Shown here piece by piece: positions 9,020 through 44,233 of a stretch of DNA of 64,000 bases. A program made the translations under genes and the position numbers. Position 1 is the first letter of the stretch. Each line of letters starts with the position of its first letter. The stretch lies in IMG/VR virus record IMGVR_UViG_3300009788_000087. One strand, written 5' to 3'. The DNA comes from a virus. Under the pieces are notes generated by a model, which saw nothing but the letters and a program-made list of their open reading frames with translations, had not been told where the DNA came from and did no database searches.

Positions 9020-9538
9020 CTATGACACGCATCGTGATGAATGATCTAGGATACACTCGTACGACACCATCCCACTCGAAGGTAATCCAGCTGTACCGTG
9101 CTCATCGACAGGAGTAGATAGCTGTAATGTATCATTCGTCAAGGGCACAAGAGTACCATCACATGTGAGTGTGGGTTCAGTCTGGCTAATATAAATCGTG
9201 TGATCCCATTGTGGTGCTGTGTTCGGAGTGCTCACGGTCGGAGCTGTTCCCCACCAATATTGTGGATAAGACGGAGGATAGACTGGCCAAGTCTGTTGTG
9301 GCCATGCATGTGGCTGCGTACGCTCATGGTTAGTGAGAGCGTCCTGAATCATGCGAGTGACACTCTCCTCGTTTAGAATCCGCTTACCAGTCTTGCTCGA
9401 CTCATTCTTCTTGTCGCCACTGGGCTTCTCGAGTTGAGCCAGTTCCTCAGCTGTGCCTTCAAATTCAATGACAGTGCCGTCAGGCTGTGTTATCTTCTTC
9501 TTCATTATCTGTAATCTCCATCTTCCATTGTGAACCAC
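9020..9538 (-). CDS. hypothetical protein with Pro/Trp/Tyr-rich low-complexity region
   Basis: WPQQTWPVYPPSYPQYWW; true start likely MKKKITQ. Confidence 0.6.
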   Translation of the reverse strand: MVHNGRWRLQIMKKKITQPDGTVIEFEGTAEELAQLEKPSGDKKNESSKTGKRILNEESVTRMIQDALTNHERTQPHAWPQQTWPVYPPSYPQYWWGTAPTVSTPNTAPQWDHTIYISQTEPTLTCDGTLVPLTNDTLQLSTPVDEHGTAGLPSSGMVSYECILDHSSRCVS

Positions 9539-10016
9539 GACCGAAATCTTTAAGATCCACGCCGTCTATATAGATATCATTCTGACATATAACTTCTACA
9601 GAATTATTCATCAGGAGCTCGATGCCTTCTGTATTCCTGTATAGTTCCGTGTACACGACTTGTTCAATTCCAGCATTTATGATTCGCTTAGAACACATCT
9701 TGCAGGGTGATGTCGTGGTATACAAGCGTTTAAATGAAGGATCATTGAAGTCTAACTTGATGATAGCATTCTCTTCCGCGTGCAAGCATCCACATTTTCC
9801 TGGTTCTTTCGAATCACAACCGTGTGGCCCGCCCTTGTAATTTCCATTGTAGCCGATGGCAAGAACACGATTGTAGTCCCACGATGTGATGACACATCCA
9901 ACTGAGGCTCGCAAACACATACTTCTCTTACTGAGAATATACGCGAATGTCAGATATACGTCAGCCCAGCGAGGACGTGAGACAATCGTTGAGCTCTCCT
10001 CGTATACGTAGCTCAC
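9480..10016 (-). CDS. dCMP deaminase (cytidine/deoxycytidylate deaminase family)
   Basis: S.C.R..VG, GYNG, HAEEN and PCKMC zinc motifs. Confidence 0.93.
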   Translation of the reverse strand: MSYVYEESSTIVSRPRWADVYLTFAYILSKRSMCLRASVGCVITSWDYNRVLAIGYNGNYKGGPHGCDSKEPGKCGCLHAEENAIIKLDFNDPSFKRLYTTTSPCKMCSKRIINAGIEQVVYTELYRNTEGIELLMNNSVEVICQNDIYIDGVDLKDFGRGSQWKMEITDNEEEDNTA

Positions 10017-10351
10017 ACTATCGTGAATACATCTTGATTAGATGTCAGTGCTACAACCACAGCGACAGTGCTACCACGATCGATGGGGATTGAGGCAGCT
10101 AAACACTTCACGTGTGCTTCAACCTCTTGTCCTGGAAGAACGAGTGTTGCTTTGTTGACTAGCTCTAACCCCTGACTGCGTGCATAGTCGCACTCTAACA
10201 ATAATACTGGTACGTTAAAGGTAACACCAAGCGGAACACGTTTAACTTCATCTTCTGCAAGATTAAAATCAAGTGGTGCGCCCAACCTAAGAACTGGTAG
10301 TTCTCCTTTTGGTGTTGTTCCATCGCCTAATTGACATTCTACTATAGCCAT
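10013..10351 (-). CDS. degenerate trimeric dUTPase-like protein
   Basis: Residual VPLG and I.RG..VA patterns; catalytic motifs not recognisable. Confidence 0.4.
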   Translation of the reverse strand: MAIVECQLGDGTTPKGELPVLRLGAPLDFNLAEDEVKRVPLGVTFNVPVLLLECDYARSQGLELVNKATLVLPGQEVEAHVKCLAASIPIDRGSTVAVVVALTSNQDVFTIV

Positions 10352-10362
10352 AATCTTTCCCT

Positions 10363-11490
10363 TTATCTATTCACTACGTTTTCAATCTTATCCACGAAAT
10401 TGGATACATCCATAAATCTTAGCTTCTCTATGTTCTTTGACCTGATGTCATCACGTTCTTTTACACTGATAGTTGCGAGGTTTTCAACGATGAAACACAG
10501 CTCATTAGGATCATCAGCTATGAACTCCACATAGTCTTCGATACCTAAGTGTGGTTTCAGGCCGACAGGTATCGTACCAAATAACAGCGCTTCCCATGGT
10601 CGAGGAGTAATGAACCCGCTCTCAAGGTATGACTGCTTACCAAGCAATGGACACGCAGCTGCAGTACCATACACACGTCTGAAATCTGATATCGTTATAC
10701 GTTCGTTATACAAGACATACGGCCATTTCAATCTGCATTCAGTAAGGTTCGGTTCGCGTGTCCAGTTGCCCCAAAACTCTACTTCAAACCTAAATGCCTC
10801 GCTGACAGGTGCTATCCACTTATCGATGACATCATCTCTTTCGTACCTTGATCCAATGTAAACGAGCTTTCTACTCTTACTAACGGGGAGTGTTGGGAAC
10901 TGGTATAGATCATCTACTACGATTGGCGGCTCCACTCTTGTTCTATAAAATCCGTAGTCCAACGGTTTGACTGACGTCTCAAAGATTGCATCGGGTGCCC
11001 ACTTCACCTCATCCTCTAGCGTTAGTTTATGATCTAGATCCCACAGTATAATCTTGGTGCTCTTACCTTTGAAGTATTCAAGTATCTGCGTCTGTCTATC
11101 AAGGTCTGACTGATAGCCCACATCATTAATATCTATGTCAATGTTCCTACCTGGAATTGGGAAGCGCCATTCAATGAGAAGCACGTCAAGTTCGGGTAGT
11201 TCATCCAATTCAGTCAATGAAATGTCTGCTGTTGTTAACGTCTTGAACGATCTACGCCATGCATTATATCGTTTTTCAGTAGAGAATGAAGAGAATGCAT
11301 TATGAAACTTACCACTCACATATTCAAAGTCACGATCACGTTGAAGTAAATACGTCTCCCATCCTCGCTTCTGTGCTTCATGAAGAATGGACCATGAGTA
11401 CGCTGCATTACCATCAGGGGTGGAAACTTCCTTGCCGAACTCGAATTTACGATCAGCGATGAATCCCCAGTATGCGTAACCTAATCTCAC
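10363..11490 (-). CDS. GT-B glycosyltransferase resembling T4 DNA beta-glucosyltransferase
   Basis: C-terminal LVYIGS...VEFWGN...LLGKQSYLESGFITPRPWEAL parallels BGT VIYGGS...IEFFGN...IIGDKNYNDNFITLRVWETM (BGT recalled from memory). Confidence 0.75.
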   Translation of the reverse strand: MRLGYAYWGFIADRKFEFGKEVSTPDGNAAYSWSILHEAQKRGWETYLLQRDRDFEYVSGKFHNAFSSFSTEKRYNAWRRSFKTLTTADISLTELDELPELDVLLIEWRFPIPGRNIDIDINDVGYQSDLDRQTQILEYFKGKSTKIILWDLDHKLTLEDEVKWAPDAIFETSVKPLDYGFYRTRVEPPIVVDDLYQFPTLPVSKSRKLVYIGSRYERDDVIDKWIAPVSEAFRFEVEFWGNWTREPNLTECRLKWPYVLYNERITISDFRRVYGTAAACPLLGKQSYLESGFITPRPWEALLFGTIPVGLKPHLGIEDYVEFIADDPNELCFIVENLATISVKERDDIRSKNIEKLRFMDVSNFVDKIENVVNR

Positions 11491-11759
11491 TTAGTTTGCT
11501 TGTGGGGATATGATGGAGAAGATGGGCGCCCACTTGGGTGAATGTCATATTCGATACTGCCATGTTTACTCGGGTGATATGCATCAGAAGCATTCGCTTG
11601 AGTTGCATATGGTATTAGCTTCTTAAATCTTTCAAGTTGTGTAACTTTAATTATAAGCTCGTTAATCTGTGCTTCACGTGTCTTACTTGGAACAACAGGA
11701 AGTAACCAAATCGAGAACCTAAAGAACTTTATCGATAGCCATTTTCTAAATCTTCTCAT
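11487..11759 (-). CDS. small hypothetical protein
   Basis: 90-aa ORF overlapping both neighbours by 4 nt. Confidence 0.55.
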   Translation of the reverse strand: MRRFRKWLSIKFFRFSIWLLPVVPSKTREAQINELIIKVTQLERFKKLIPYATQANASDAYHPSKHGSIEYDIHPSGRPSSPSYPHKQTK

Positions 11760-12301
11760 AACTCTACCTTTACACCGCTATCTGAATTTAGACTGCGTAT
11801 TAGGTTAATCTTTTCCGTGAGTTGCGGCAACTGTCGTTCAATGTCATCATCGTAGTCATCAACAAAGATCTTAATAACATGACAATTCGTCTGATGATAG
11901 AATCTCGTATATCTATTATGTAGTGCTTCTAATTTGTGTGATTCTACGAGCTCATCATTTACTACAGAATAATCATGACGCAGACACATTACGACAATAG
12001 CACCCATCTCGCTCCACTCACTATCAATTCGATTCAGTGGTTCAGAAAGTGTTGAGCGTCCATACACGTCTGAATACACGATCTCTGATATGTAGCATCT
12101 ATCTGACACAAACGCAGTGTCTGTCTGTCTCACAAACTCAGGTAACAGTATATCAAATGGAATAGAGCTTGTAAAACAATCATTGATCCAGTTTGATTTT
12201 TCAGTTGTTACCTTGAAATATGGGATCCCATAGTGATTAGAGAGAGCGTGGGAAATATGAGTTTTGCCGCATCCGTCTGGACCTTCTACAAAGATGATCA
12301 T
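11756..12301 (-). CDS. dNMP kinase (thymidylate-kinase-like P-loop)
   Basis: MIIFVEGPDGCGKT, SDR motif; ATG at 12301 overlaps upstream TGA. Confidence 0.85.
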   Translation of the reverse strand: MIIFVEGPDGCGKTHISHALSNHYGIPYFKVTTEKSNWINDCFTSSIPFDILLPEFVRQTDTAFVSDRCYISEIVYSDVYGRSTLSEPLNRIDSEWSEMGAIVVMCLRHDYSVVNDELVESHKLEALHNRYTRFYHQTNCHVIKIFVDDYDDDIERQLPQLTEKINLIRSLNSDSGVKVEL

Positions 12302-12996
12302 GGTTTTCTTACACACCAATAATCTGAGGGTGCTTGCCCTTCTTCGTTCGACCATCTTTCGTGCTCTATTGGAAGATCGTGTAGAGGACTATAAAACATA
12401 TCACCTACTGCAGCCATCACACCTTTCCAATATTCGCAGTAATCATCACCGAACATAATGCCACCAGCACGAAGTAGTGGCCAGTATGCTTCGAGATCTG
12501 CTAAGACATCTTCATACTCATGGCTACCATCAATGTAGATGAGGTCTGCTTGCACGTCTTTCTTTCGCAATAGACGAGCAGCATTTGTTGATGTCTGTGG
12601 AAATGGTGTGATTCGACCTTGGTTCCCAGTTATAATTACATTTGCAAGAAACTGATAGTATACTTGTGGATAACCATTACACAACTCGAGAGACTTGTAT
12701 CTCTTCTCGTCCTTGTGGTCCTCCCAAAATTCTGTCGCACCAAGCCATGTATCAACACATGTAATCTCAGTCTTACCTCTTAACTCTGGATCTGCGCCGC
12801 ATATATCTGCCATCGTGATCGCAGACTTACCTTTCCATGTACCAACCTCAATGATAAGTTCAGGTTTTACTTCATCGATCTTCTTCTTGAAATATTCATA
12901 ATGTCCGCCCCAACCTTGAGCATCGAATGAATATGCTACTAAAGGAAAATCCTTGTAGATGTCATGGTCGTAAAGAATATCATAGATTCTACTCAC
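12298..12996 (-). CDS. class I SAM-dependent methyltransferase (Methyltransf_24-like)
   Basis: IEVGTWKGKSA, VDTW, YIDGSHEYEDV..D, GGIMFGDDY; probable GTG start at 12996. Confidence 0.88.
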   Translation of the reverse strand: MSRIYDILYDHDIYKDFPLVAYSFDAQGWGGHYEYFKKKIDEVKPELIIEVGTWKGKSAITMADICGADPELRGKTEITCVDTWLGATEFWEDHKDEKRYKSLELCNGYPQVYYQFLANVIITGNQGRITPFPQTSTNAARLLRKKDVQADLIYIDGSHEYEDVLADLEAYWPLLRAGGIMFGDDYCEYWKGVMAAVGDMFYSPLHDLPIEHERWSNEEGQAPSDYWCVRKP

Positions 12997-14077
12997 TGCC
13001 AACCCCTTTGAATAATCCTGCCCAGATCTGCATGGCTTTGCCGAGCTTCTTGAAGTAGTCCGTATATTCGGGGAATTCATCATACTTGGTGATGTGTTTT
13101 CCGAGATGCATGTATATCGTATTAGCTTCTATATAACCTTCAACTATTCCAGGATGATCGAATGAGTCTACATACTCCCACAGCTTCTCATTCACCTCGA
13201 GACCATTTGCTTCCTTCTTTAGGTTGGTGAATGGATTGGATGCACGCTCGTGCCTGATGTATGGAATCCCGGTGCTGACAGTTTTACCTAGAATATCTGC
13301 GCACTTCTTCATAAAGATGCCGCACCATATGTCACCGAAGCGATCGAATGGAAGTTTTTTCAAAGTTGTATATGGTTTCAATTCAAAGTCTTCTGGCGTA
13401 ACTTTAGGTTTCAACTGTTGCCCCATCAGTAAGTGATACATCAGTACCGTGTACTCTGCTTTCCACATCACGTTCATCCCACACATGGGGAAGTATGAAC
13501 CATGGGGCACGATCTTATTGTCATAGGCAAACTTCTCTTCTACGGGATTGACGAGCTGAGTGGGCGCATCATAGTCTATTACATTCGTCCACAGCCCGTG
13601 ATTTACAATCGTATCGTTCCGTTCACCAAGATTGTAGAACGGTATTCCACGAGGTTTCACACAGTCGAGAGTATTGAACCATCTTGTGCGGCCACCATTG
13701 AGATATTTCTTGTGTTGCTCGACGAATCCTTTGCCATCATATATGTGATCCATCGGATAGCAGTCATCATCGAGTGTCATGATGTACCTATAGCCACATG
13801 AATGCGCATACCAATATGCAAAACTTCTGACAGTATCAGATCTTCGTGGGATTATCCACTCATCCTCACCAAGTCCATCCCGGATATTTTTCCAACACAA
13901 ATGTACGATATTATTTTTGGAACCATCAAAAACTTTGAATGTCTTTGTTGGATTGTCTTCCATAACAAACAGGTCTACATGATCGAATAGACCGATATCA
14001 TTCCACCTCTTATAAAAATCAGTGAAGCAATTCTCACGAATCGTAGGAACTATTAATGCGATTTCTTTAGCGATCAT
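12989..14077 (-). CDS. RGP / UDP-arabinopyranose mutase homolog (GT75)
   Basis: TLDDDC, RGIPF, HGLWTNVIDYDAPTQLVNP, FPMCGMN, TGIPYIRHERASNPFTNLKKE match conserved plant RGP/UAM blocks. Confidence 0.88.
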   Translation of the reverse strand: MIAKEIALIVPTIRENCFTDFYKRWNDIGLFDHVDLFVMEDNPTKTFKVFDGSKNNIVHLCWKNIRDGLGEDEWIIPRRSDTVRSFAYWYAHSCGYRYIMTLDDDCYPMDHIYDGKGFVEQHKKYLNGGRTRWFNTLDCVKPRGIPFYNLGERNDTIVNHGLWTNVIDYDAPTQLVNPVEEKFAYDNKIVPHGSYFPMCGMNVMWKAEYTVLMYHLLMGQQLKPKVTPEDFELKPYTTLKKLPFDRFGDIWCGIFMKKCADILGKTVSTGIPYIRHERASNPFTNLKKEANGLEVNEKLWEYVDSFDHPGIVEGYIEANTIYMHLGKHITKYDEFPEYTDYFKKLGKAMQIWAGLFKGVGSE

Positions 14078-14080
14078 CTT

Positions 14081-17000
14081 TTATCCCTCTACCTCATCCA
14101 CATTAATTAATGCACCATCTGCACTGTATTCACTGTGTGCCCATCCCGGTTTGCCAAGCACGAGATTCTGTGGTTCATCCAGCTTTCTATTGAAGGTGGC
14201 AAAGAATACATTACCCTTCACTGCTTTCTTCGCAATGTACCGCCAGATTGTTGCGAAGCACGGTGCGTCAAACTCAGTCCCATTTCTGTCACCGAACTTA
14301 ATGAATGCCATCATGCCACCACGAGACTGAGCACGTTCACGGACATCTTTAATGATTACAGGGATGACACCGATTTTATCCTCTGACTTCACAAACTCTT
14401 CAAAGTCTTGAACCATGCCTTCCTTAGCAAGTATCTCTATCTTCTTATCCCTATCGAATAGTTTGAATGGTGTACCAATAAGATTGAATCCAAGCAACTC
14501 ATTCTCATACTCTACAAGCTTAGCGATTGGATGCGGTTCACACTCAAGAGCAAAGTACTGCTCTTCAAATTCAGCTTTCTTTTTCTTGACGCGAAGCTTT
14601 GGATTGTCCTGCCACAATTCATACCTCAACTCAGTCAGCGCCATGTTCTCTTCCAATGAAGTAAACGCACCGACCTTGATAAGGGGAACCGTTGCAGTCT
14701 TACCACCGCCTGTCTTATAGAGATAATCACGTAGACTCTCATACGGTTGGCTCTTCTCAATCTTCTTAACAGCTGCGTCACCGACACCCAACGCAGAACC
14801 AAGTGCTAACCTGATCGCAACACCCTCAATCTTGTGAAAAGCACTCGATTTATTGATATCTACCGGCAGAATCTTAAATCCCTGACGCTTGATGTCGTCC
14901 ACATAAGATTGAAGATCATCTGCTTTACCATGAATTAGAAGTGCTGTAAAGAATTCAAGTGGATAGTATGTTCGAAGGAATGCAGTCTGCATGGAGATCA
15001 TAGCATAGCACTTGGCATGACTGGCATTGAAACCATATCCACCAAAGTGCTCGAACATATTCCATAGTTCAAGACCCTGCTTCTCAGTCAATCCATTCTC
15101 TACACATCCCTTAACGAATGGTTCTCTTAGCTCCTTCTTCTCGTTCTGAAGGAAGTCATCCTTCTTTGACTTGTCTTTCTTTAGGAACAGCTTCCTAAGT
15201 CTGTTGACATGTGTCATCGGTAGCTTACCGAGGTGGTGACCGATGTTTAACATCTGTTCCTGATATACAAGACAACCGTAAGTCTCCTTCATGATCTCTT
15301 CCATCATGGGATGCACATATTTGATCTTGTCAGGGTTGTGTTTGTTCTCAGCGTATAGCTTATGCATGCCTGAACCAAGTGGTCCCGGTCTATAGATCGC
15401 ACCGATCGCTGACACGTCATTGAAGCAGTCAGGTTTAATCCGTTGAGCTACTTTCCTGATACCTTTGTTTGTAAACTGAAATATGCCCGTGAAATTCCCG
15501 TCGATGAAGACTGTCTTGATTACTTTCTGATCATCGATGTCCATGTACGTTGGATCGACCATCTTATATGCTTCATCATAATTCATGTCATGTCGTTTAG
15601 ATATTAGCCTAAGTGCACGGTCGATGACCGATAGAGTTGAAAGCGACAGTATGTCAAACTTGACAAATCCCATCGCTGAACATTGCTTGTTAACAATCCC
15701 GTCAGTGAACGATGTTTGTAGAACTCCTTTATTCTGGAATAGAGCCATCTCTCGAGGTAGGTTGTCTCCGATAACGAGGCCACAAGCATGACGTCCCACG
15801 TGACGATTCTTCCCATACAACTTAGTGATATTTTCACCGATGACGGGATACTTCTCGACGAGAGCTCTGTAAGTAGGAGAGACTCTAACGACATCTTCGT
15901 ACTTGATGTCGATGGTGGACTTGTCTTGGCCTTTACCTCGCAAGACTCGAAGCTCGCCCTCGATTTTCTTGTTTGCCTTGTTGATCTCTCGATGGTCGAT
16001 ATCATAGACACGTGCTATATCCTTGAGTAGTCCCTTAATTTGGAATGTACCGTATGTGCTGATGCAAGCGACGTTGTCGTGACCGAACATCTCACGGAGC
16101 ATTTCGCGCGCTTGCTCGCTATCTTGAAAATCAGTATCAATGTCAGGAAGCTCGACACGGGAAGGGTTAATAAATCGCTCGAATAGAAGATTATGTTTAA
16201 TGGGATCGAGATCTGTGAGACCACTGAGGTAACAAACAAGAGAACCAGCAGCACTACCACGTCCCGGTCCCACGAGCATTTGCTCTTTGGCTTTGGTAAT
16301 GATGTCACGCATAATGAGGAAGTATGAGGCAAAACCCTTCTCCTTAATCAGCTTCATTTCATGCATGAAGCGTTTACGATACTGCTCATCATCAGTGAGG
16401 TTCAGCTCTTTCATCCTCGCAATGGCCACCTCACCCAGTTTCTTGAATGGATGCTCGAACCTACACGTTGGAAGCCTCTCTTCCGTATTAGGTTCATAGT
16501 CTTCAACCATCGAGTCAATGAGCAGTGTATTTTCAAATGCCTCACGAACAAGATTTGCATCTGCATCGCCACCAAAGCGCTCGAATGTTTCCCACATCTC
16601 TTGAGGTGACTTAATGTAGAGCTGCTTGATATTAAAATCCCAGTCATCTCCTCTTGTCGACATCGTCTTCTGACTGCGAAGCATGTAAAGAATTTCCTGC
16701 GCAGCCCACTCGTCTGAGTTCACGTAGTGTGAATCGCATGTTACATTGAGCGGGATTCCAGTCTCATGATGCACTTTGATAATAGACTCGTTGATAAATC
16801 GCTGAGAATCAGACTCGTTGAACTGCAGCTCAAGGAAGAATCTGTCACCGAAGATCTCCTTATATTCTTCAGCTTCACGAACGACATCACTCCACTCAGC
16901 GTCACCGTTCTTCCATGCCCAGCACCTATTAGCAATGACTCCGCCCATGCACGCTGAAGACGCGATGACTCCGTTACCGAAATCATTCATCATCCTCTTA

Positions 17001-17464
17001 TCGATCCTCGGCTTCATGTACATGCCCTCCTTGTGCGCAAGGTGTGTGAGGTTGTACAAGTTATCGAGACCCGCCTGATTCTGTGCTATGAGAACAAGGT
17101 GACCTTTCCTATAGAGAGACTTCTGTCTACTCTTCATATCGAGATTGGTAGCATCTTCATCTACCGCCTCAGACTTCTTTAGCTTCTTCAGTGACTCCTT
17201 GTCGGACTCTAACTTTGCTTTCTCTTCTGACCACTTCTTTAGATCATCAATCGCATATGCTTCAACACCGTAGATTGTGCGGACTCCATGTTTCTTTCCA
17301 TGCAGATAAAAATCTGCAATACCATGCATATGCCCATGATCAGTTAGTGCAATAGAGCAAAGACCTTTCTCCTTCGCTTTAAGGACCATGTCTTCAGGTC
17401 GAGACAGACCATCCATGAAACTGAAGTGGGAGTGATTGTGCAGACTAGCAAAATCTTTTATCAT
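14081..17464 (-). CDS. dnaE: DNA polymerase III alpha subunit
   Basis: PHP HNHSHFSFMDG, GPGRGSAAGSLV, PDIDTDF, KFDILSL, VYQEQ, YGFNASHA, C-terminal OB fold; no intein. Confidence 0.97.
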   Translation of the reverse strand: MIKDFASLHNHSHFSFMDGLSRPEDMVLKAKEKGLCSIALTDHGHMHGIADFYLHGKKHGVRTIYGVEAYAIDDLKKWSEEKAKLESDKESLKKLKKSEAVDEDATNLDMKSRQKSLYRKGHLVLIAQNQAGLDNLYNLTHLAHKEGMYMKPRIDKRMMNDFGNGVIASSACMGGVIANRCWAWKNGDAEWSDVVREAEEYKEIFGDRFFLELQFNESDSQRFINESIIKVHHETGIPLNVTCDSHYVNSDEWAAQEILYMLRSQKTMSTRGDDWDFNIKQLYIKSPQEMWETFERFGGDADANLVREAFENTLLIDSMVEDYEPNTEERLPTCRFEHPFKKLGEVAIARMKELNLTDDEQYRKRFMHEMKLIKEKGFASYFLIMRDIITKAKEQMLVGPGRGSAAGSLVCYLSGLTDLDPIKHNLLFERFINPSRVELPDIDTDFQDSEQAREMLREMFGHDNVACISTYGTFQIKGLLKDIARVYDIDHREINKANKKIEGELRVLRGKGQDKSTIDIKYEDVVRVSPTYRALVEKYPVIGENITKLYGKNRHVGRHACGLVIGDNLPREMALFQNKGVLQTSFTDGIVNKQCSAMGFVKFDILSLSTLSVIDRALRLISKRHDMNYDEAYKMVDPTYMDIDDQKVIKTVFIDGNFTGIFQFTNKGIRKVAQRIKPDCFNDVSAIGAIYRPGPLGSGMHKLYAENKHNPDKIKYVHPMMEEIMKETYGCLVYQEQMLNIGHHLGKLPMTHVNRLRKLFLKKDKSKKDDFLQNEKKELREPFVKGCVENGLTEKQGLELWNMFEHFGGYGFNASHAKCYAMISMQTAFLRTYYPLEFFTALLIHGKADDLQSYVDDIKRQGFKILPVDINKSSAFHKIEGVAIRLALGSALGVGDAAVKKIEKSQPYESLRDYLYKTGGGKTATVPLIKVGAFTSLEENMALTELRYELWQDNPKLRVKKKKAEFEEQYFALECEPHPIAKLVEYENELLGFNLIGTPFKLFDRDKKIEILAKEGMVQDFEEFVKSEDKIGVIPVIIKDVRERAQSRGGMMAFIKFGDRNGTEFDAPCFATIWRYIAKKAVKGNVFFATFNRKLDEPQNLVLGKPGWAHSEYSADGALINVDEVEG

Positions 17465-17474
17465 ATTCCGTATT

Positions 17475-17786
17475 CTAACTGATCGATTTCTTAGAAGACT
17501 TACTAATAGGTATTTCAGCGAGATATCCGCTTAAGACACTATCTCTAAGTCGTTCGTCAACGTAGGCTCTTTTTGCTTCTTCAAATGAACAACGACTCCA
17601 TCGTTCATTTCCAAGAGAATCTTTACTAAGAGACTCTGTAACGACATAAATCTCATATTGCTTGCCATTAATCCCTACATTTAGAAGATGATAAGGATCG
17701 TCTGCTCTCTCGGATGCAATGAAACGATAGTCCTTACATGATAACACAACTCTCGGTAGTTTTAGATTTTTAGTAACCACTTTCAA
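17475..17786 (-). CDS. hypothetical protein
   Basis: 103-aa ORF inside the coupled operon. Confidence 0.6.
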   Translation of the reverse strand: MKVVTKNLKLPRVVLSCKDYRFIASERADDPYHLLNVGINGKQYEIYVVTESLSKDSLGNERWSRCSFEEAKRAYVDERLRDSVLSGYLAEIPISKSSKKSIS

Positions 17787-18150
17787 ACCTTTCTTTTACA
17801 ACTCGGTTCTTACGACAGAACTCATTGTACATCTCTTGTGGTGAGATGCCGGACAGTATACAGATCTCCATGAAATACGCCAATGTATCTCCTAGCTCTT
17901 CAACATAGTGTGAACGATCGAATTCCCTATCATCAGTCACTTTATGTATCTTGTTCTTCAGAGTATACGTTGCCTCCCACAGTTCATTGTGACAGTCACT
18001 AACGATCTCCTTGATCATACGTTGACCCTGTTTAGTTGTCAAATCAATCGGCCAAGGAGGTAGGACATCACGTTCTTCCAATATCTGCATGTTCCCCTCT
18101 TGGCGATAGAACATGTCTTTCCATAAGTCAGTTGAAAGTGACATCGTCAC
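17770..18150 (-). CDS. all-alpha dNTP pyrophosphohydrolase (MazG / dimeric dUTPase / dCTPase-like)
   Basis: ELWEA...EELGD acidic helices and C-terminal KN......R...GY. Confidence 0.8.
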   Translation of the reverse strand: MTMSLSTDLWKDMFYRQEGNMQILEERDVLPPWPIDLTTKQGQRMIKEIVSDCHNELWEATYTLKNKIHKVTDDREFDRSHYVEELGDTLAYFMEICILSGISPQEMYNEFCRKNRVVKERFESGY

Positions 18151-18550
18151 TCCTTACCTTATAAGTCTGCGGACCGGACGCATCAGTTATCAGGCACTTA
18201 CCAACGTTAGACACGAGATCCCACGCGCATGATGGGTGCCAATAACTTTCAAGCAAACCCTGCACCTTTGATCGCATAAAATCATTCTCACTGAATAAGA
18301 TGATTGTCCCTACATTTATACAACATAGATGCCCGATGAGTTCGTCGGTCAACTCGACACCCCTTACAAAGATCTTATCGTAGACCTTCGAGTAGTTGAG
18401 ATCAGATACGTCTTCTACATGATCCAATTCAGCTACATACTTCTTCATGAACGACATTGGATCTGCACCAAGGAACAGCATCCTATCAGAAGACCTAACT
18501 CCTGTCACGTCAGAGACGTCATCACATTTGCTATACGGATTCTTTGTCAC
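18128..18550 (-). CDS. hypothetical protein
   Basis: 140-aa ORF overlapping both neighbours. Confidence 0.6.
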   Translation of the reverse strand: MTKNPYSKCDDVSDVTGVRSSDRMLFLGADPMSFMKKYVAELDHVEDVSDLNYSKVYDKIFVRGVELTDELIGHLCCINVGTIILFSENDFMRSKVQGLLESYWHPSCAWDLVSNVGKCLITDASGPQTYKVRSDDVTFN

Positions 18551-19511
18551 GTTTTTCCTTATGCTCCACTAGTTGTTGAAACATCCACAATAGAGTTTCA
18601 TTCTGTACTGGCAATGATTTTGGTAGTAGTGCACCAGTTCGAAGGCATTCCTCTGCCGTTATTAGAATATCTAGCTCCTCAAGATTACTCAGCGGTGCCA
18701 TCGGTTCAGTGAATTTACCTCGTTTTGGACTAGAATCTTTTATCCACTTCGCATACCTTTGCCTATGTTCATTCAACATCTTCTCTGATAATTCGTAGTG
18801 TCGATCATAGACATGGAGTGAACCAGTTGTGTGATAATACAGACCAAGCTCTAAGTCTGGATAGTGTTTCTTTAGCTCTAATAACATGCACTCTTGAAAG
18901 AGAGTGAACGAGAATAAATCATACGTCAGTCCCCAGTGTACATCATTTGAGCGCATATTGACATGGAGATGTAGCTTATTCTCTCGAATAAAGAATTGAA
19001 GAGAAAGCGTGCACGGTACATCTTTGGATCCTTCAGTATCTGCATTAAACTGATGTACTGGTTGGTGGATTTGCAACACTGCTCTTCTGCTATCTTTGTC
19101 AGATTTAAGCGTGTTAATACAGATTTTCCACTGGTCAACTTTTGCTGCTTTATCTGGTCCTGTTGGTGCCATCCCATGAATGATATGACCATACGCAGAT
19201 ACTACAGTCTTTCCGTCATCTGAAAACTGCGGCATCCTCTTGTTGTAGTACGTCATCTCCTCAAGAGAGTTCGAGCCGCGCCAATACCAAAGGAACTCAC
19301 CGACTGCAAACGCATATTTAGACTTACGGACTTTAGATGATAGTAGTCTGTTACGAGGATCACTGAGGATCAAGCGAGGTACTAAGACTTCTCTTACTTC
19401 AGTGCCACGTGGTTTGCAAACATAGTCAGGGAAAGACATCTCCATGAGGACATCGTACATCAACTCATCGAAGCTATCCTTGACAAACCTATATCCCACC
19501 ATTGGCTTCAT
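18531..19511 (-). CDS. thymidylate synthase homolog, predicted dCMP-modifying (hydroxymethylase-type)
   Basis: GEFLW, DSRRA, catalytic PCT, MRSNDVHWGLTYD with Asp at the Asn177 specificity position, LHVY. Confidence 0.85.
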   Translation of the reverse strand: MKPMVGYRFVKDSFDELMYDVLMEMSFPDYVCKPRGTEVREVLVPRLILSDPRNRLLSSKVRKSKYAFAVGEFLWYWRGSNSLEEMTYYNKRMPQFSDDGKTVVSAYGHIIHGMAPTGPDKAAKVDQWKICINTLKSDKDSRRAVLQIHQPVHQFNADTEGSKDVPCTLSLQFFIRENKLHLHVNMRSNDVHWGLTYDLFSFTLFQECMLLELKKHYPDLELGLYYHTTGSLHVYDRHYELSEKMLNEHRQRYAKWIKDSSPKRGKFTEPMAPLSNLEELDILITAEECLRTGALLPKSLPVQNETLLWMFQQLVEHKEKRDKESV

Positions 19512-24957: not shown

Positions 24958-25521
24958 TTATCCTGTTAGTTCAAGATCACACTCGACCTCATTGCCCCAT
25001 GAATCCCAACCGTCTGTTTTCTCTCGTGCAAACAGCTCGATGCGCGGTACATAGCTGACAATCTCTATCATCTCTCGCATCTCATCAGGTTTCTGCGAAT
25101 GTCTCTGACGTGGTGCTATGATCGCAGTTCTACCTTGCAGACGACCACCTTCTTCATTTCTTCGATAGGGTAGTCGACCCATGACACCGAACAGACATGA
25201 TTCAGACGCTCCTCTGAAATACTGTCCTAGCCCACACTGCAGTTTCTTGTTAACCTTGACCCAGTCTATCTTCGTAACATACCTGAATCCCCAAGACTGC
25301 ATAATCCTAAGACCGTGTGGCAAGAAGTTATTCGTCACCCACATGTAAAGATGAGAACCTTGTTCATCAGCTATATCACGAACAGGGAGTGCCTCGATCT
25401 CAGCAAGAGACATGACTGGATAGTGTCTATCAGAACCCCAACTTCTTCCTGTCTTATCTTTACCACCAACTTCTTTCCACGGAGGATCAACTAGTATTGT
25501 TCTATATCTCTGATCAGTCAT
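24958..25521 (-). CDS. MT-A70 family N6-adenine methyltransferase
   Basis: ILVDPPW, Y..M...EI..LPV, LYMWVTN, WGF.Y, HSQKP, RIELFAR..GWD.WGNE. Confidence 0.92.
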   Translation of the reverse strand: MTDQRYRTILVDPPWKEVGGKDKTGRSWGSDRHYPVMSLAEIEALPVRDIADEQGSHLYMWVTNNFLPHGLRIMQSWGFRYVTKIDWVKVNKKLQCGLGQYFRGASESCLFGVMGRLPYRRNEEGGRLQGRTAIIAPRQRHSQKPDEMREMIEIVSYVPRIELFAREKTDGWDSWGNEVECDLELTG

Positions 25522-29764: not shown

Positions 29765-32700
29765 TTATTTCTCTTCCTCATCCTCTGGCGGAATCTCTTT
29801 ATTATTGACACGATTAAACTGAGCAGTCGACCAAGGAGAAGACTGCGCGCCGCGGCCAGCAGCATAGTGACCCATGCCCGACATCGACATGCTAGTGCCT
29901 GGAGGGGCGCCAAGCTCAGCAATGAATCGTTCAGCGAGCTTTCTTGATGCATGCTCCAACACATCGGGCTCTGCACCAGGTGAATTAGATTTACCTAGAT
30001 CATTGATTATATAATGAGAACCCCGCTTCATCACATTACCACTGTGATAATCAGCGAATTCGATATTGTGTTGTCTCAATTCAGCATGCATTTCAGGAAT
30101 GTTGTATTTCTTTAAGAGATTTATATTGAACCCATACTGTCTCGTTGTAGCCTTTCTAATCTTATTTGCACCCTTGGGATCATTTGGATCTACACCAAGT
30201 TCTTTTGCAGCTTCCTCTTTATATTTTTCATAGAGAGCATTTTCAAACTCTTCCCATGATTTTGTTGCAACAATCTCGATAAGATCATCATGCTCTCCCA
30301 TAAAATCAGTTGCTCTATCAACATCACGTTTTTCAGTAGCGCTAAGTTCTGTCAACTTCTCTGTTACAATACCGTAGATTAATGGCTCCTCTCCAGGAAA
30401 TCTGAATACATCAAAGATCTTTACGACGTGTTGTAAAGCTGTTTTTCCTTTGAGCGAATTGCTGGTCACTGCTTCTCGTGCATCTGTCGTGACTTTAAGA
30501 ACTTTTCCTCCGCCTGCATCAAATGCAATACCCATCGCTCCATGACCAAGATATCCGAGTGATGACGCATTAATACCAGTTCTCTCTTTTAGTTTATCAG
30601 CGTTCACTATCACGATCTTTTCAAGATTATCAATGCCCACTGACTCTAGATCTGGGGATTTTTCTACTTCTGCTTCAGTGATTGCTTCCTGGATAGAGAT
30701 AACATCTTTCATCTCTTCACGCATGTCATCATAGATGTTATCAAACCCCTGTGGATCTGAGATAACGTGTGCGTCGAGCATCTTCTCAACGGTGTTCCTG
30801 TCATTCTTGGCAAGTGCGTCGCGAATTGCAGTGGATGATATTCTTTCCATGTCATCCATGTCATTCTTCACACCAGGAAGTTTCGTGACATTAACGAGTG
30901 CTGGATCGAAGTTGGGTAGATTCTCCCTGTTTGCAGCTGCATGCTGCATCTGTTTCTTCATGCTCTCGAATCTATCGGGACCGACAAGCACGTTGATAGC
31001 AATTTCGGGTTCAATGGATGAATTGTGATCGTTGATAATGTCAGACAACACGCCTGGAATGTAGCCGCTGGCTTTACCTTCCCACTCAGCCACATACACT
31101 TCAACCTTCGGCATGACATCAGGTAGAGATCTTTGCATCATCTCTACTCTTGTCTCGTATGACCACGGATTCTTCTTGTCTCTCTTGTTTCCTGCTACAA
31201 TGACCACGACCTTTGTGAACTTTGATGCTAGGTCACGGATGATCGCTGCATGTCCTTTATGGAAAGGCTGGAAGCGACCGATAGTCACGCCGATAGTGTC
31301 TGCTGGGTTGTAGTTTGGTTCTTCAAACATGCTCTTCACAACTTCAGACACTATGTTATCAACGGTATTCATTGATTCTGAAACTTGAACGCCTGGAACA
31401 TATTCCTTTACCCAATTCGCTGCCCCACGTGAACCGAAATCGTCGTTATCAGCATCCCAATCTTCGAAGTCATGAGAAAGAATCTTCGCATTCGGGGCAG
31501 CTTTCCTAAAGAAATCGACGAGCGCATTCCAATGTATATGAGACAAACCACCACTTTCCAGATCAGAAATATTATGCACTTCTTTCATGTCAGGTGTAAT
31601 TGTTACCATCGCTCCACGATTTTTTAAAACTGGATTATCTCCCTTGTGTAAGACCCATAAGTCTGCACGTTTTGCCAGCATGTCGGGATCATGACCCGTA
31701 TTGCGCCACTCATATCCACCATCTATTTTTACAGCGCTTCTTGAATCACCTCCAGTGATGAATCCAACAAATTTTTCATTTTCCTTAGAACGAAGAAGTT
31801 CCTCATCATTAAGTTCTGATTTTGTTTTGTTGAAGAACTCTTTCACATACTTCCAATATTTTTGATCAGGAGCTCTATTCTCTTTTCCTTTTATCTGAAG
31901 AACTGTTTTATTTGCTTCATTCCACGTCATCGTCACGTGTGGTTTATTGCTTGGATCACGAAGCGAAATTAAATTGCCACGTTCATCTTCACCACAGTGT
32001 CCCATTTTTTCAGCTTCATGAGGGCATGACGATTTCTTAAGATCAGTCCAATAAAAACCATCAGGAAATTCAATGATAGCATTGCTTTTATCTCGCTCTG
32101 CCGAAGCATCATCTGCAATCGTTTCAATTGTATTAAAGTCTTTTGCTGCCTGTATTTTCTTGGCTAGATGTGGTTTTTTCTTCAAAGTAGAAAGAAGATT
32201 TGAACCAAAATCCTCCATAAATTCATCGACTCTATCTTTTCTTTTTCCCAACTTAAAGCGCTGAATATTAGGTGGAAGCTGATCGTCGATGGTGAGAGAT
32301 TCGACAAAGTCGTCATCCCATTTTTCACCATAAAGTTTAAACGCTGTAGCAAGTGCAAAAGTATGTTTTTTATCTATCTCATAGAAATGATCAGCTGCCC
32401 ATTTTGGAAACTTAAGAAGCCTCGTAATATTTCCACGTGAGTCTTCATCGATCATGCCGACAGTGTCCGCCTCATTGGCGGTCTGATCACTACCGGCTTC
32501 TAGAAAAATAGAATAAACCTGTTCTCGAATGATTGACTCAAGCACATCGGGTTCTTCTCCACCTTGGACATCTGAAAGACCAATGTCAATCAAGACATAT
32601 TCGCCTCCCCTCTTCATGAGGTTTTCACCTCGATAATCAGAGAATGAAATGCCTTTTCCTTTCAATTCCTCCCATGAAGACTTTACTTTGTATTCATTTT

Positions 32701-35700
32701 CAAGCTTGTCAAGGATTTCAGTCGCCCAGTTTTTTGCAATCCTACCCTCTTTAGATGCAGGATCACCACCACCCTTCTTCTTTACAGCATGTCGTATTGA
32801 TTCCTTAACAGCTTCTTCCCATGTCTTAGCTCTTTTAAGCCAGATAGGAAGACCAGTAAAGACCAGCATGTTGTCAAATTTATCTGATTCTTCTTTTGAT
32901 AGTGGTTCAAGTTTTTCCTGTATGATCCCGTATGCTTGAAGATCTTTAAACCTGAAGACGTCGATTATTGCAGCGACATGTTTCATGGTCATGCCTTTGA
33001 TCTTGTTGGACGCTATAGCTTCTTTTGAGTCCTTCGTGACCTTAAGAACCTTGCGGCCACCAACATCAAAAGCAGTACCCTGTGTTCCTTTACCTAGTTC
33101 TTTTGCAGTGGAAACATCAATGAGCTTCTTTGTCTTGAGTAGATCAGCATTCCTCTCGAGGATCTTCTTTGCATCTGCTGGATTGGAAGGATCTAGTCCC
33201 ACAAGTCCAGTCTCTGGATCGTCCAATGGTTTTGAACCAGGTTCATCATCAGCTTTCGCACCTAGTTTATCTCCTTTGCGGCGACCGACGGCACTTGGTT
33301 CATCAGGAGGACCAAACAACTCATCACCCAAAGCTTCAGTTAATTTCTCTACTAAAGAATTGATACTATCTTTTTTCATCTCACCAAATGCCTCACAAAG
33401 CTTGAACCATCTCACCCTTCCAAGTGCAGTTCTAATCATGTTGAGAGGAGAGAAATCCTCAGTCATAACTTCTTCGCGGATCCATGTATCCACTGAGAAG
33501 AACTCATTATCTGTCCTCTCCACGATTATCGGATGCATTGCGATCTTGTAGATGTGGCTCTCAAATACCGGTAGAGGCTGCGTCTTCCACGCCTCAGCAA
33601 GCTTAGAAAACCTGTAGATTGTAGCATTTGCAGTCTCAAGATACCTCTCTTTGTATCCCTCACTGAAAAGCTTGTTGTCATTGCAGAACTTGCTGAGTGC
33701 CTCGCCGAGTGATAGATTTCCGTAGTGCCTCTTCATGTATCCCACAATTGCTGGAATCTTGAGAGTCTTGGATCCAATGACATGCTCCGCAACTTTGTTT
33801 CTAAACTCTTTGGTCAGACCTGGAGTCCAGACGCCATCTTCTTTCAATCCCTTACCGAGTTGCTCGCGGTGGCGCCACATGGTTTTGTTAAGTTCAGTGA
33901 AGAGATGGCGGTTGACAACTTTGACCATCTCATTTGTCAGCGTGTTTCGAATGACAATGCCCTCGACAATCTTCCCGCCAAAGTGTGGAAAGATCATGGC
34001 AACGTGTGTCATGAGATGTTCTTCAATTACATGTCGTTCTTTCACCACAGGAAGCATGAATTTTCCAACTGGAACACACTCAAACATCCAACCGTCAAGC
34101 TTGACAGCTTCCGTGAGACGCTTGAATTCCTCAGACGTGTTGTGCAACACGATGGCATTTGGCCCATACTCCAACACATTGGGTACAGGACCGTCTAGAA
34201 TCTCACAGGTGACGCTCAGTGCTCCTGCAGGCCAGTTTGATATGATGGCCTCAGCCTGAGATTCAAGAGCCTCATGCGCCCTCTGGAGAGACGAGATGGC
34301 ACGGCTATTTGGCCAGTCTCTCGAGTCCATGACGGGCCCATAGTTCTTTGACTTGGTCCACAGGGTTCCTTCCTTGACACCGAACTCCATGAAGGCTGAA
34401 CCGTCAAGCTTCTCGGTAATTTCAGCATTTCCTGCACGCCAGGCCTCGATGAACTCCCAGAATTTCTCTTCCTTTAGATTACCGATGTGCGGAATGCCTT
34501 TTCCCATAGTGCTAATTGTATAACACTCAGGACGCAAAGTATCTGCTTTTTTGCTTTCTGTAAATTCTTTTGGAAGAGTACCACGATCATTCCTCTTATC
34601 ATACCAATCTCCTTTATTGTTACCAGAACGATGAAGTTTTTCCATGTCCTCTTCTACTATAATTTTAACATTATTTGAACCATGGTTTATTACAATGTAT
34701 TCTTGCTCTTCGTCTCTATAGTCTGTAGATAATCTTCTCGTATAATAGTTTATCAAGTTATCAAACCATGAAACAGTATGTTTTGGACCAGATATTAATA
34801 TATCAGGTTTGTCTTTCAGTTCTAATATGTATCCAATACCTTCTTCGTTTCTATCAACACCGTATGCATTTGCTATATTTGCAAACCTGAGAGCCGCGTG
34901 TGGTTGTGTTGTCCAGCTACTAAATGCTCCAACTGTTGGTAATGCCAGCACAGAACCTTCACCATTTCCGATTCTTTTCTTTAACACTAATCCACGATAT
35001 AGTGGTGGTAGACTTGTGGTAGTAAAAATTTCTTTGCGCGCTTGTGGATTTTGATATAGGAATTTAACATTTTCGACTGTCGTTTTTTTACCTGCTTCTT
35101 TGATTGCCTCCTTGCCCCATACCCACATAACGACTTCATTTAACATACCAATAAGCGTCTTTTGCCCGTAGCGTGACATAAATGATTTAGCTTCTTTTAT
35201 CTCACTGTCATTTAATTTAGAAAACGCTTTTCCAAGCTGTTGTTTGCCAACGACGGCAGCGGCCTCATTGGTAATCTTTCCGCCTGGCTCCGCAAGTTTC
35301 TGCTTGAACTGGTCCACTGGCATCTGAGACATGCCGCCAAAGAAACCCTCATCATCATAGTGCTTGAGGTAGGCAGCTTTCGCTTCATCAGCACATCCAA
35401 AACCGAGCATGCACTTGTCTTCATCGTGTTCAATGAAGTCAGGCTTCGTCATCTGGTGCACGACATAGACCCACTCAGCATCCTCGTCATCACCGATATA
35501 GACATCTACTGGATCGTCATCGGTGCCCTCAGTTTCCTCGACATAGCCGTAGTCATGCTGCATCTTGGTCTTGCCAGTCTTGCCGTCACTGTCAGTCCAC
35601 TCACGTGAAGAACCCTTTGACTGCTCTATAGAGATTGGGATATCCTGAAATGTATACCTGTCATCGAGCTTGAAACCTTCTTCGTTGTAACCTAGATCTT

Positions 35701-42427: not shown

Positions 42428-42727
42428 TCAGCTATCACGGCTTTCTCTTTCTTCGACAAGTTTCTGTGCAAAATACCTAATGAAGTCTGTCTCAAAGAAC
42501 TCCATGGCTGCTTCGAACACAAGCTCCTCAGACTGATCGACATATGATACATCTACCTGAGGATAGTGTAAACACCATAATGTTAGTGGGTTTCCTTCTG
42601 GATCCTTTGGATCCCTGACATCATCCTTGTGTAGACGATATTCTGCTTTTACCTCAGCACCCTTCACACACATTTTTGCTGAGTCTTGTCTAACCAAATT
42701 CTCGAGGTTTAGTTGAAAGTCAATCAT
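42428..42727 (-). CDS. hypothetical protein
   Basis: 99-aa ORF overlapping the polymerase stop. Confidence 0.6.
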   Translation of the reverse strand: MIDFQLNLENLVRQDSAKMCVKGAEVKAEYRLHKDDVRDPKDPEGNPLTLWCLHYPQVDVSYVDQSEELVFEAAMEFFETDFIRYFAQKLVEERESRDS

Positions 42728-44177: not shown

Positions 44178-44184
44178 CTCCTTT

Positions 44185-44193
44185 ATTATAACA
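44185..44193 (-). promoter_or_regulatory. extended -10 promoter, probable leaderless start of the PolA-like gene
   Basis: TGT-TATAAT then 7 nt to ATG 44177. Confidence 0.5.
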
Positions 44194-44233
44194 CATCTCT
44201 GTGCCAATTAATACTAAGTATGACACAAAAGTG

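Follow-up and report, generated by a model that had tools for sequence, protein, structure and literature searches.

Predicted synthesis of furanosyl-hydroxymethylcytosine in an uncultured phage whose replication module carries a GT75 sugar mutase

That a phage may combine 5-hydroxymethylcytosine (hmC) or 5-hydroxycytosine (5hoC) with a sugar-donor enzyme of its own and a GT-B transferase is an established concept. T4 makes glucosyl-hmC by means of gp56, gp42, gp1, the deaminase Cd and BGT. The DNA of the Rhizobium phage RL38JI (Pootjesviridae) contains galactosyl-5-hydroxycytosine, and the UDP-galactopyranose mutase of that phage has been proposed to provide UDP-galactofuranose for its DNA glycosyltransferase (PMC13326640). 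RB69 carries arabinosyl-5-hydroxycytosine, made with a D169N enzyme (PMC13326640, PMC13390438), so that an earlier note on the DNA considered here, which took RB69 as a precedent for arabinosylated hmC, was outdated on this point. The same note knew of no described phage pathway with a GT75 mutase or with such chemistry coupled to DnaE, which overstated the novelty, since the route from mutase to transferase had already been proposed for RL38JI.

The source of the window, that is, of the whole 64-kb stretch of DNA that was analysed, is a T4-shaped phage, uncultured and some 196 kb in size. It is probable, though well short of certain, that the DNA of this phage contains furanosyl-hmC, whatever the sugar. 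The nine genes named earlier were all found, on the minus strand at 9480-19511 (Table 1), and three ORFs that had gone unmentioned lie inside the run (18128-18550, 17475-17786 and 11487-11759). The run had been called translationally coupled; eight of its 11 junctions do overlap (4-23 nt) and three are gapped (3-11 nt), but the adjoining replication genes are just as densely packed, and tight coupling is thus not specific to the pathway. The gene set is not due to chance, since both the set and its order are found again in dozens of independent contigs. Palindromic 6-mers had a mean z of +0.37 and CTAG alone was clearly avoided, both as judged without a control set.

Table 1. Genes of the run, with predicted functions and the basis of each assignment
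Feature	Coordinates	Strand	Basis
TS homolog, predicted dCMP hydroxymethylase, 326 aa	18531..19511	-	PF00303 E 1e-24; best PDB match MilA
Accessory 140-aa protein, no family match	18128..18550	-	Pfam, PHROG; homologs
MazG-like all-alpha NTP pyrophosphatase, predicted dCTPase (T4 gp56 role)	17770..18150	-	PHROG 12184 E 3e-15
Small hypothetical ORF, about 101 aa	17475..17786	-	Close relatives only
DnaE (Pol III alpha-type) replicative polymerase, 1127 aa	14081..17464	-	Four Pfam families
GT75/RGP metal-dependent NDP-pyranose mutase, 362 aa	12989..14077	-	PF03214 E 4e-39
Predicted class I SAM O-methyltransferase (Methyltransf_24, CmcI/TylF-like), 232 aa, accessory	12298..12996	-	Pfam E 1e-20
P-loop dNMP kinase (thymidylate-kinase-like), predicted hmdCMP kinase, 181 aa	11756..12301	-	PHROG 761 E 2e-13
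Small hypothetical ORF, 90 aa, variable slot	11487..11759	-	PHROG search, relatives
BGT-like GT-B glycosyltransferase, 375 aa, predicted hmC-DNA furanosyltransferase	10363..11490	-	AF2 model, hhalign, genomic context
Truncated dUTPase-fold protein, 112 aa	10013..10351	-	Atlas structure, TM 0.79 to dUTPase
dCMP deaminase	9480..10016	-	Pfam E 2.5e-17; HAE + PCxxC motifs intact

The TS homolog is most likely a dCMP hydroxymethylase of the T4 gp42/MilA type, to judge from its signature residues. MilA is its best match in the PDB (E 6e-32), and alignment with T4 gp42 and RL38JI gp216 places D164 (within K-D-V-P-C) at L143D, C167 at C146, D190 at D169 and D198 at N177D. L143D marks hydroxymethylases, and all tested 5hodCMP synthases have N at position 169 (PMC13326640). 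L143D and N177D together with a retained D169 are common to T4 gp42 and MilA. The present protein reads RSND against the RSQN of RL38JI gp216, and its lack of D169N argues against a 5-hydroxy-dCMP synthase of the type of RB69 gp48 or RL38JI gp216. ThyX was found in five of five relatives, which would free the TS homolog from dTMP synthesis; none was found in the 64-kb window or in the following 7 kb. The pre-replicative route to hmdC proposed earlier is borne out as a prediction, from the TS signature and the context of the module. Within that context, the MazG-like protein (probably beginning at the ATG at 18144) has an ExxE..EExGD motif, the catalytic PDIDxD of DnaE is intact, the kinase (most likely starting at 12301) has a P-loop and DR motifs, and the deaminase is predicted to supply dUMP for dTMP. 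The protein described earlier as a dUTPase-like relic does have a dUTPase-like fold, but it is truncated and of doubtful activity, and a Pfam search with it gave no match. The 140-aa protein matched nothing in Pfam or PHROG and only hypothetical clusters in Atlas; a minority of the relatives have a homolog at this position.

The glycosyltransferase found no match among Pfam, PHROG or PDB sequences. Its AF2 model (pLDDT 96) folds as GT-B, and a Foldseek search with the model brought T4 DNA glucosyltransferase to the top, with AGT in first place. VIA-align ranked BGT sixth (Z 20.3), amid near-tied GT-B folds, and scored the HY126 transferase lower (Z 17.2). By hhalign the match to T4 BGT was 94.4% (E 8.7e-8) over the C-terminal half, within which the two are about 20% identical. 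R218, Y288, R297 and E300 correspond to BGT R195, Y261, R269 and E272, and E107-W-R109 corresponds, in the MAFFT alignment only, to D100-I-R102; in BGT these residues serve in catalysis or UDP binding. D153 had been considered as the catalytic base and was dropped, since the alignment puts E107 on BGT D100. Homology and genomic context together suggest a distant relative of BGT that would modify hmC-DNA, as the earlier note supposed. No sequence relation was found to AGT, RL38JI gp215 or, in an Aeromonas phage, the neighbour of the FAD-dependent UDP-galactopyranose mutase Glf. The family, apparently undescribed, falls into some 400 groups when clustered at 50% identity. Among cultured phages none encodes either this transferase or a GT75 within such a module. 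In actinobacterial loci an Asp-type TS adjoins the homolog in 76 of 80 cases.

The GT75 protein matches PF03214 over its full length (135 bits, cut-off 23.8) and matches MtdL and OsUAM2 in the PDB (fold TM 0.70-0.73), although its identity to solved members is only 20-23%. The roles of residues in GT75 mutases are known from MtdL and the plant UAM/RGP enzymes (PMC9937993), and all the catalytic residues of MtdL are kept: D103-105 (DDD), R143, D168, R246, D249, H276 and R278. The enzyme is apparently an active mutase, and the role of furanose-donor enzyme given to it earlier holds to that extent, its substrate being predicted. Plant-type specificity is defined by Pro13, Asp86-Ser87 and Gly228 (MtdL numbering), and by this measure the evidence is mixed, since P11, G200 and M201, along with a PMCGMN block, are plant-like but S80-D81 equals S86-D87 of MtdL where plants have D-S. 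S80-D81 is invariant among 119 homologs. In MtdL this pair governs guanine binding and L-fucose turnover, and S91D in AtRGP2 abolishes formation of UDP-Galf; T13P in MtdL, the counterpart of P11, lowers the affinity for GDP about 28-fold, and in plants GT75 enzymes turn UDP-D-Galp and Galf into each other (PMC9937993). S80-D81 would argue against a plant-like pocket for UDP-Gal. When cultured carriers were sought, the only GT75 match came from an uncultured phage of 595 kb lacking the module.

A furanose donor for hmC-DNA is likely because of the company that the transferase family keeps and because GT75 and Glf alternate beside it. The family occurs in phages of 45-416 kb with TS, kinase, MazG and DnaE; of its long phage loci, 45 once redundancy was removed, 40 have the kinase, 38 DnaE, 36 TS, 35 MazG and 27 the dCMP deaminase. 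The co-occurrence of GT75 with the BGT-like module, suggested earlier as worth surveying, was seen in 24 of 68 lineages, a set in which GT75 loci are over-represented through the choice of queries. Another 15 lineages have Glf near the transferase and 29 have neither within 10 kb, so members of the family need not use a furanose. No lineage has both, against about five expected under independence, a count that is phylogenetically non-independent (three changes for GT75 and seven for Glf on a fast tree; the trees were quick ones and FastTree). Glf is absent genome-wide from two near-complete GT75 genomes among the relatives (G001, G002), and GT75 is absent from a Glf genome (G005). In 23 of the 24 lineages of the GT75 clade, GT75 lies between DnaE and the kinase-transferase pair. 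The transferases linked to GT75 have as their sister group L086 and L119 (46-47% identical to the transferase in the window), which are Glf-linked, and donor-pocket residues are common to GT75-linked and Glf-linked members. The order kinase-GT75-UDG-GT in L031 mirrors kinase-UDG-Glf-GT in L141, L154 and L161, and GT75 was apparently recruited twice, because the GT75 of L031 belongs to a different GT75 lineage. Viral GT75 alone is not diagnostic, since none of 30 long non-module loci has TS or DnaE. Most viral GT75 genes are located away from DNA-modification modules, in many cases near terminase, GT2s, epimerases and methyltransferases of the family seen here.

The methyltransferase, most likely starting at 12996, exceeds the cut-offs of Methyltransf_24 and CmcI (33.5 bits vs 23.2) and falls below that of TylF; its PDB match, to an O-methyltransferase, is weak (E 0.34). 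It stands behind GT75 or ahead of the kinase in six other phages. It may be a sugar O-methyltransferase, and methylation of the sugar, part of the earlier proposal, is plausible but would be accessory, as the gene is confined to the source phage and a minority of relatives.

In the pathway that we propose, the MazG-like enzyme would strip dCTP to dCMP, as its family and context suggest, and the TS homolog would convert dCMP to 5-hydroxymethyl-dCMP. The kinase, with the host NDP kinase, would produce hmdCTP, to be incorporated by the phage DnaE. The Mn2+-dependent GT75, through an adduct on Arg143, would convert an NDP-pyranose to the NDP-furanose, an activity established for the family. The BGT-like enzyme would then move the furanose onto the hydroxyl of hmC in duplex DNA, probably with inversion and with E107 as base. 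The likeliest donor is UDP-D-galactofuranose from host UDP-galactose, which would yield 5-(galactofuranosyl-oxymethyl)cytosine; we favour galactofuranose over arabinose, with confidence a little below the midpoint. O-methylation of the sugar by the SAM enzyme may follow, a step for which the chances seem about balanced. The full combination, an O-methylated furanosyl-hydroxymethylcytosine, possibly derived from a GDP-linked L-sugar and made by GT75, the BGT-like family and a tailoring methyltransferase, is offered tentatively, as less likely than not. No report of a natural-product-style tailored glycan on DNA was found in the literature. The modification would shield the DNA from restriction, CRISPR and nucleases directed against glucosyl-hmC.

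The sugar might instead be L-arabinofuranose, the choice of the earlier note, made from UDP-L-Arap, the native substrate of plant GT75s, or a D-galacto-configured sugar such as D-fucofuranose. P11 and the PMCGMN block would suit such a substrate, and relatives encode elsewhere a UDP-sugar dehydrogenase, unassigned epimerases and CDP-glucose-dehydratase-like enzymes. This seems decidedly unlikely, however: relatives replace GT75 by Glf and not by an arabinose pathway, S80-D81 is of the MtdL type, the 64-kb window has no epimerase or arabinose-nucleotide genes, and the module genes include no cluster of arabinose-5-phosphate isomerase, sugar kinase and nucleotidyltransferase as in RB69 and DLP3. 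Such sets, where known, serve 5hoC, and NDP-arabinose is an uncommon metabolite in bacteria (PMC13326640, for Enterobacteriaceae). The invariant S80-D81 would fit an enzyme like MtdL or Hyg20, making GDP-L-fucofuranose or GDP-L-galactofuranose for transfer to hmC, and in L147 an epimerase gene (best PDB match GDP-mannose 3,5-epimerase) directly precedes the transferase. Yet P11 mimics the mutation that weakens GDP binding, the transferase has the same nucleotide pocket as its Glf-linked kin, L147 has no mutase nearby and the window has no GDP-sugar genes, all of which leaves a GDP-L-sugar clearly unlikely.

A broader doubt is whether the mutase serves DNA at all. The BGT-like enzyme might put an ordinary pyranose such as glucose on hmC, GT75 and the methyltransferase being passengers or belonging to virion-glycan synthesis; relatives do have a second large cluster of glycosyltransferases and epimerases, about 100 kb away, that could consume furanose, and the lineages without a mutase and the viral GT75s outside modules fit this idea. 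It is nonetheless unlikely, given the fixed place of GT75 in its clade and its second recruitment to the same transferase family, in alternation with Glf. The association of a single transferase with two unrelated ring-contracting enzymes is not readily put down to passenger genes. Perhaps, finally, the TS homolog makes 5-methyl-dCMP or 5-hydroxy-dCMP, or the transferase acts on a free nucleotide or small molecule. MilA uses CMP in an antibiotic pathway, and operons of transferase, TS and carbamoyltransferase on actinobacterial chromosomes may make small molecules. Against this stand the retained D169, the hydroxymethylase mark L143D, the BGT D100/R102 motif in the transferase and the presence at phage loci of a dCTPase-like enzyme, kinase and polymerase, and we regard it as very unlikely.

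Furanosyl-hmC, if confirmed, would enlarge the sugar chemistry of phage DNA hypermodification, perhaps by the first sugar tailored with a methyl group. DNA metabolism would then count among the functions of GT75 enzymes, and hmC replacement would be seen to run on DnaE polymerases across phages of 45-416 kb, gut phages included. The GT75/Glf swap offers a cheap and direct route to testing the identity of the donor, and the enzymes might find use in labelling hmC or probing the specificity of type IV restriction. No paper combining GT75, mutase and phage was found, an earlier computational mention being possible (Iyer et al. 2013 was not covered). Pyle 2023 does not mention mutase, RGP or furanose. 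The moraphages, jumbo phages of Bacteroidota, were not linked to this lineage because the paper on them mentions neither DnaE, mutase nor thymidylate.

The system is most likely a variant of the T4-style shield against host nucleases, as far as its genes allow one to judge. Its logic and enzyme classes are those of T4, but T4 uses a family B polymerase in place of DnaE, the kinase here is thymidylate-kinase-like and the dCTPase MazG-like, and T4 has neither a ring-contracting mutase, here dedicated, nor an O-methyltransferase, here optional. RL38JI resembles the present phage in the proposed feeding by a phage mutase of a transferase acting on C5-modified cytosine. There, however, a D169N flavin enzyme provides 5hoC as the acceptor, as opposed to the hmC predicted here; its mutase is an FAD-dependent Glf encoded far from TS, and gp215 has no sequence similarity to the present transferases. 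In RB69, DLP3 and HY126 (PMC13326640; He et al. 2026 and Mahler et al. 2025 as cited elsewhere), GT-B enzymes place a pentose, reported as furanose, on modified cytosine after replication, but the acceptor is 5hoC and the donor is built without a GT75, by an isomerase, a phosphatase, a kinase and a nucleotidyltransferase. The 5-carbamoyloxymethylcytosine system (PMC8670742) shares the Asp177 TS and a context of MazG/PRA-PH and dCMP deaminase, and differs in its carbamoyltransferase, of which the present locus has none, the decoration here being predicted as a sugar. Distant members of the transferase family occur within TS-carbamoyltransferase operons. In common with MtdL, Hyg20 and plant UAM/RGP the GT75 has the fold, the DDD motif, the autoglycosylated Arg, the catalytic Asp and the Mn-binding His (PMC9937993), but those enzymes act in antibiotic or cell-wall synthesis, whereas this one, in which the specificity residues are mixed, is encoded within the replication module of a phage.

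The phage is a T4-shaped myophage, and the window is one piece of its genome. Among the proteins encoded in the window are tail sheath, gp13, gp19 and those of the baseplate (Gp23 follows just past the right end), as well as RecA, TubZ and proteins resembling gp32 and PolA; the longest contig carrying these proteins is 196,492 bp. Nearly all genes lie on the minus strand, and the module there is real and conserved. The gene run described in an earlier note was borne out, with every named gene class present in coupled order: TS homolog, 140-aa ORF, MazG-like protein, small ORF, DnaE, GT75, methyltransferase, kinase, 90-aa ORF, 375-aa glycosyltransferase (GT), dUTPase-fold relic and dCMP deaminase (5' to 3'). 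Neighbors overlap at 8 of the 11 junctions and are 3-11 nt apart at the other 3. Since equally tight packing runs on into the DHH, RNR and DnaB genes upstream, the module is part of a replication arm. Besides DnaE, the phage has a PolA-like protein, and either may serve in repair or on the lagging strand when modified dCTP is used. Outside the module it also carries genes for a tubulin-like GTPase (in a DnaE myophage), for a DNA methyltransferase-like protein, and for a 2507-aa protein that is possibly an ejected anti-defence polyprotein.

Coordinates of features in the window and in loci fetched for comparison
Feature	Location	Description
Module	window 9480-19511	minus strand
GT	window 10363..11490	375 aa, BGT-like
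GT75	window 12989..14077	362 aa, PF03214
DnaE	window 14081-17464	
TS homolog	window 18531..19511	326 aa
DNA methyltransferase-like	window 24958-25521	PHROG 359, E 2e-63
2507-aa protein	window 29765-37288	inorganic-pyrophosphatase-like and cytidyltransferase/NMN-adenylyltransferase-like domains; DarB-like or head-protein segment
TubZ	window 38331-39527	
PolA-like	window 42720-44207	495 aa
TS variant	L031:8167-9147	RSED..NE, apparently Glu at 177
UDG-superfamily gene	L031:10953-11705; L139:2430-3083; L141:1397-2089; L147:11019-11624; L299; L301	adjoins GT or mutase
Glycan cluster	L311 (G001:18000-38000); L312 (G002:133000-153000)	~20 kb
Bacterial operon	L195:4785-16974	example from L179-L258
Glf homolog and 358-aa protein	L315:6004-8185	Aeromonas phage 25

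The best solved relative of the TS homolog is the CMP hydroxymethylase MilA (E 6e-32), far ahead of ThyA. In such enzymes Asp177 governs the choice of dCMP, an acid at 143 marks a hydroxymethylase, and Asn169 marks a flavin 5-hydroxy-dCMP synthase (PMC13326640). The aligned residues at 143, 169 and 177 are D, D and D, as in T4 gp42 (RL38JI gp216 has N169), so the predicted base is hmC. The TS homolog would not have to supply dTMP, as ThyX occurs in 5 of 5 related genomes; neither the window nor the 7 kb beyond it yielded a ThyX.

No family library names the GT. Its AlphaFold model (pLDDT 96) has a GT-B fold, with T4 alpha-glucosyltransferase the top Foldseek match, and a wide fold search gave near-ties (BGT at Z 20.3); the modeled fold is not by itself decisive on the closest relative. 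A profile of the GT family (23 diverse members) aligned with T4 BGT over 175 columns (94.4%, E 8.7e-8) and did not align with AGT, RL38JI gp215 or a Glf-adjacent Aeromonas phage protein. In a multiple alignment, E107-W-R109 sits on D100-I-R102 of BGT, and R218, Y288, R297 and E300 match R195, Y261, R269 and E272; these BGT positions include catalytic and UDP-binding residues. The family comprises 394 representatives at 50% identity, and no member was found in cultured phages.

Loci for comparison were fetched with GT75 and GT profiles and annotated with HMMs. Across phages whose sizes span ~45-416 kb, the companions of the GT are an Asp-type TS, kinase, MazG, DnaE and dCMP deaminase; among 45 long non-redundant loci, the kinase occurs in 40, DnaE in 38, MazG in 35, deaminase in 27 and TS in 36, the last gene frequently falling just outside the 10-kb flank. 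It is mainly because of this company that hmC-DNA is the predicted acceptor.

Other relatives of the GT keep different company. A sizeable set of phages of 40-60 kb (L261-L289), many from gut or rumen-type samples judging by IMG ids, carries MazG-kinase-GT-TS-DnaE but no mutase, and frequently another one or two GT-like genes; these are candidates for oligosaccharide-hmC. Distant members occur in 80 or more loci of actinobacteria and other bacteria (L179-L258; also L309, L310), in operons with an Asp177 TS (76 of 80), carbamoyltransferase, P-loop protein, SAM methyltransferase, APH-like kinase and epimerase, which could be chromosomal hmC DNA-modification systems or nucleoside natural-product clusters. 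The UDG-superfamily gene adjoining the GT or mutase in several lineages perhaps repairs deaminated modified cytosine.

GT75 clears the Pfam cut-off by a wide margin, resembles OsUAM2 and MtdL in fold (TM 0.70-0.73), and retains all residues required for metal binding and catalysis (PMC9937993). As for specificity, P11, G200 and M201 agree with the plant enzymes, and S80-D81 with MtdL. Mutation T13P lowers GDP binding, S86D abolishes it, and plant S91D loses UDP-Galf formation (PMC9937993). With such a mixture, the sequence supports a mutase but leaves the sugar unnamed.

Where GT75 is missing, an FAD protein often adjoins the GT, and it is a UDP-galactopyranose mutase, Glf (PF03275 E 1e-41 and 6e-68; PDB E 3e-57). 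Within the fetched DNA of 68 lineages, which are non-independent and over-sample GT75 loci, GT75 is present in 24 and Glf in 15; no lineage has the two together, and 29 have no mutase of either kind. The survey suggested in the earlier note found GT75 beside the GT in 24 of 68 lineages and, as counted here, TS in most long GT loci. Two GT75 genomes (91-96% complete) lack Glf, and a Glf genome (98% complete) lacks GT75. In fast GT trees, the main GT75 clade has the Glf-linked loci L086 and L119 as its sister group. One locus, L031, reads kinase-GT75-UDG-GT where L141, L154 and L161 read kinase-UDG-Glf-GT, and its GT75 nests within non-module viral GT75s, so this transferase family appears to have recruited GT75 twice. 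(The TS of that second lineage is a variant.) That two unrelated ring-contracting enzymes alternate beside one transferase points to a furanose donor, and we consider furanosyl-hmC in the phage DNA, predicted from genes, fairly probable.

As Glf makes UDP-Galf and the aligned nucleotide pocket of the GT does not change between GT75-linked and Glf-linked groups, galactofuranose is the best guess for the sugar. A small part of our expectation of furanosyl-hmC goes to furanoses of GDP-L-fucose or L-galactose, for which S80-D81 speaks, as does one GT locus whose epimerase is nearest to GDP-mannose 3,5-epimerase, and a slightly smaller part to D-fucose or arabinose, the type named in the earlier note. 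Its precedent, arabinosylated hmC in RB69, is outdated: that DNA carries arabinosyl-5-hydroxycytosine (PMC13326640, PMC13390438). The furanose might instead enter a second large glycan cluster, which lies ~100 kb off in relatives; we think this unlikely. This conserved cluster, with many GTs, two epimerases, a UDP-sugar dehydrogenase and methyltransferase-like genes, probably serves virion glycosylation. Viral GT75s do lie mainly outside DNA modules (TS or DnaE in 0 of 30 non-module loci); more than 50 (L015-L074) have as neighbors GT2s, dehydratase-like epimerases, and genes for terminase or structural proteins, a setting which suggests that smaller phages put furanoses into their virion glycans.

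The methyltransferase (Methyltransf_24, similar to CmcI/TylF) lies between GT75 and kinase, or immediately before the kinase, in five comparison loci (L006, L105, L113, L132, L308) and one Logan contig, and ~17 of its top homologs, paired by eye, lie on contigs that apparently equal in length those of GT75 or GT matches. As most module lineages do without it, its tailoring step would be optional. Enzymes of the family also occur with GT75 in viral glycan clusters outside the module; this is consistent with a sugar acceptor but does not place that sugar on DNA. A methylated sugar on the phage DNA is, overall, doubtful.

The novelty claimed earlier was overstated: for RL38JI, a mutase of the phage has already been proposed to supply the donor for a DNA transferase (PMC13326640). 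No paper was found that connects GT75 with phages, or DnaE with the glycosylation of hmC, most subscription journals lying beyond the search's reach. Cultured Pootjesviridae and Aeromonas phages carry Glf. In Aeromonas phage 25 an unannotated 358-aa protein follows the Glf homolog, a pattern found in cultured Tulanevirus phages, which are a candidate for galactofuranosylated DNA. Among known systems, the module would work like the glucosyl-hmC pathway of T4 and falls outside the 5-hydroxycytosine systems of RB69 and RL38JI.
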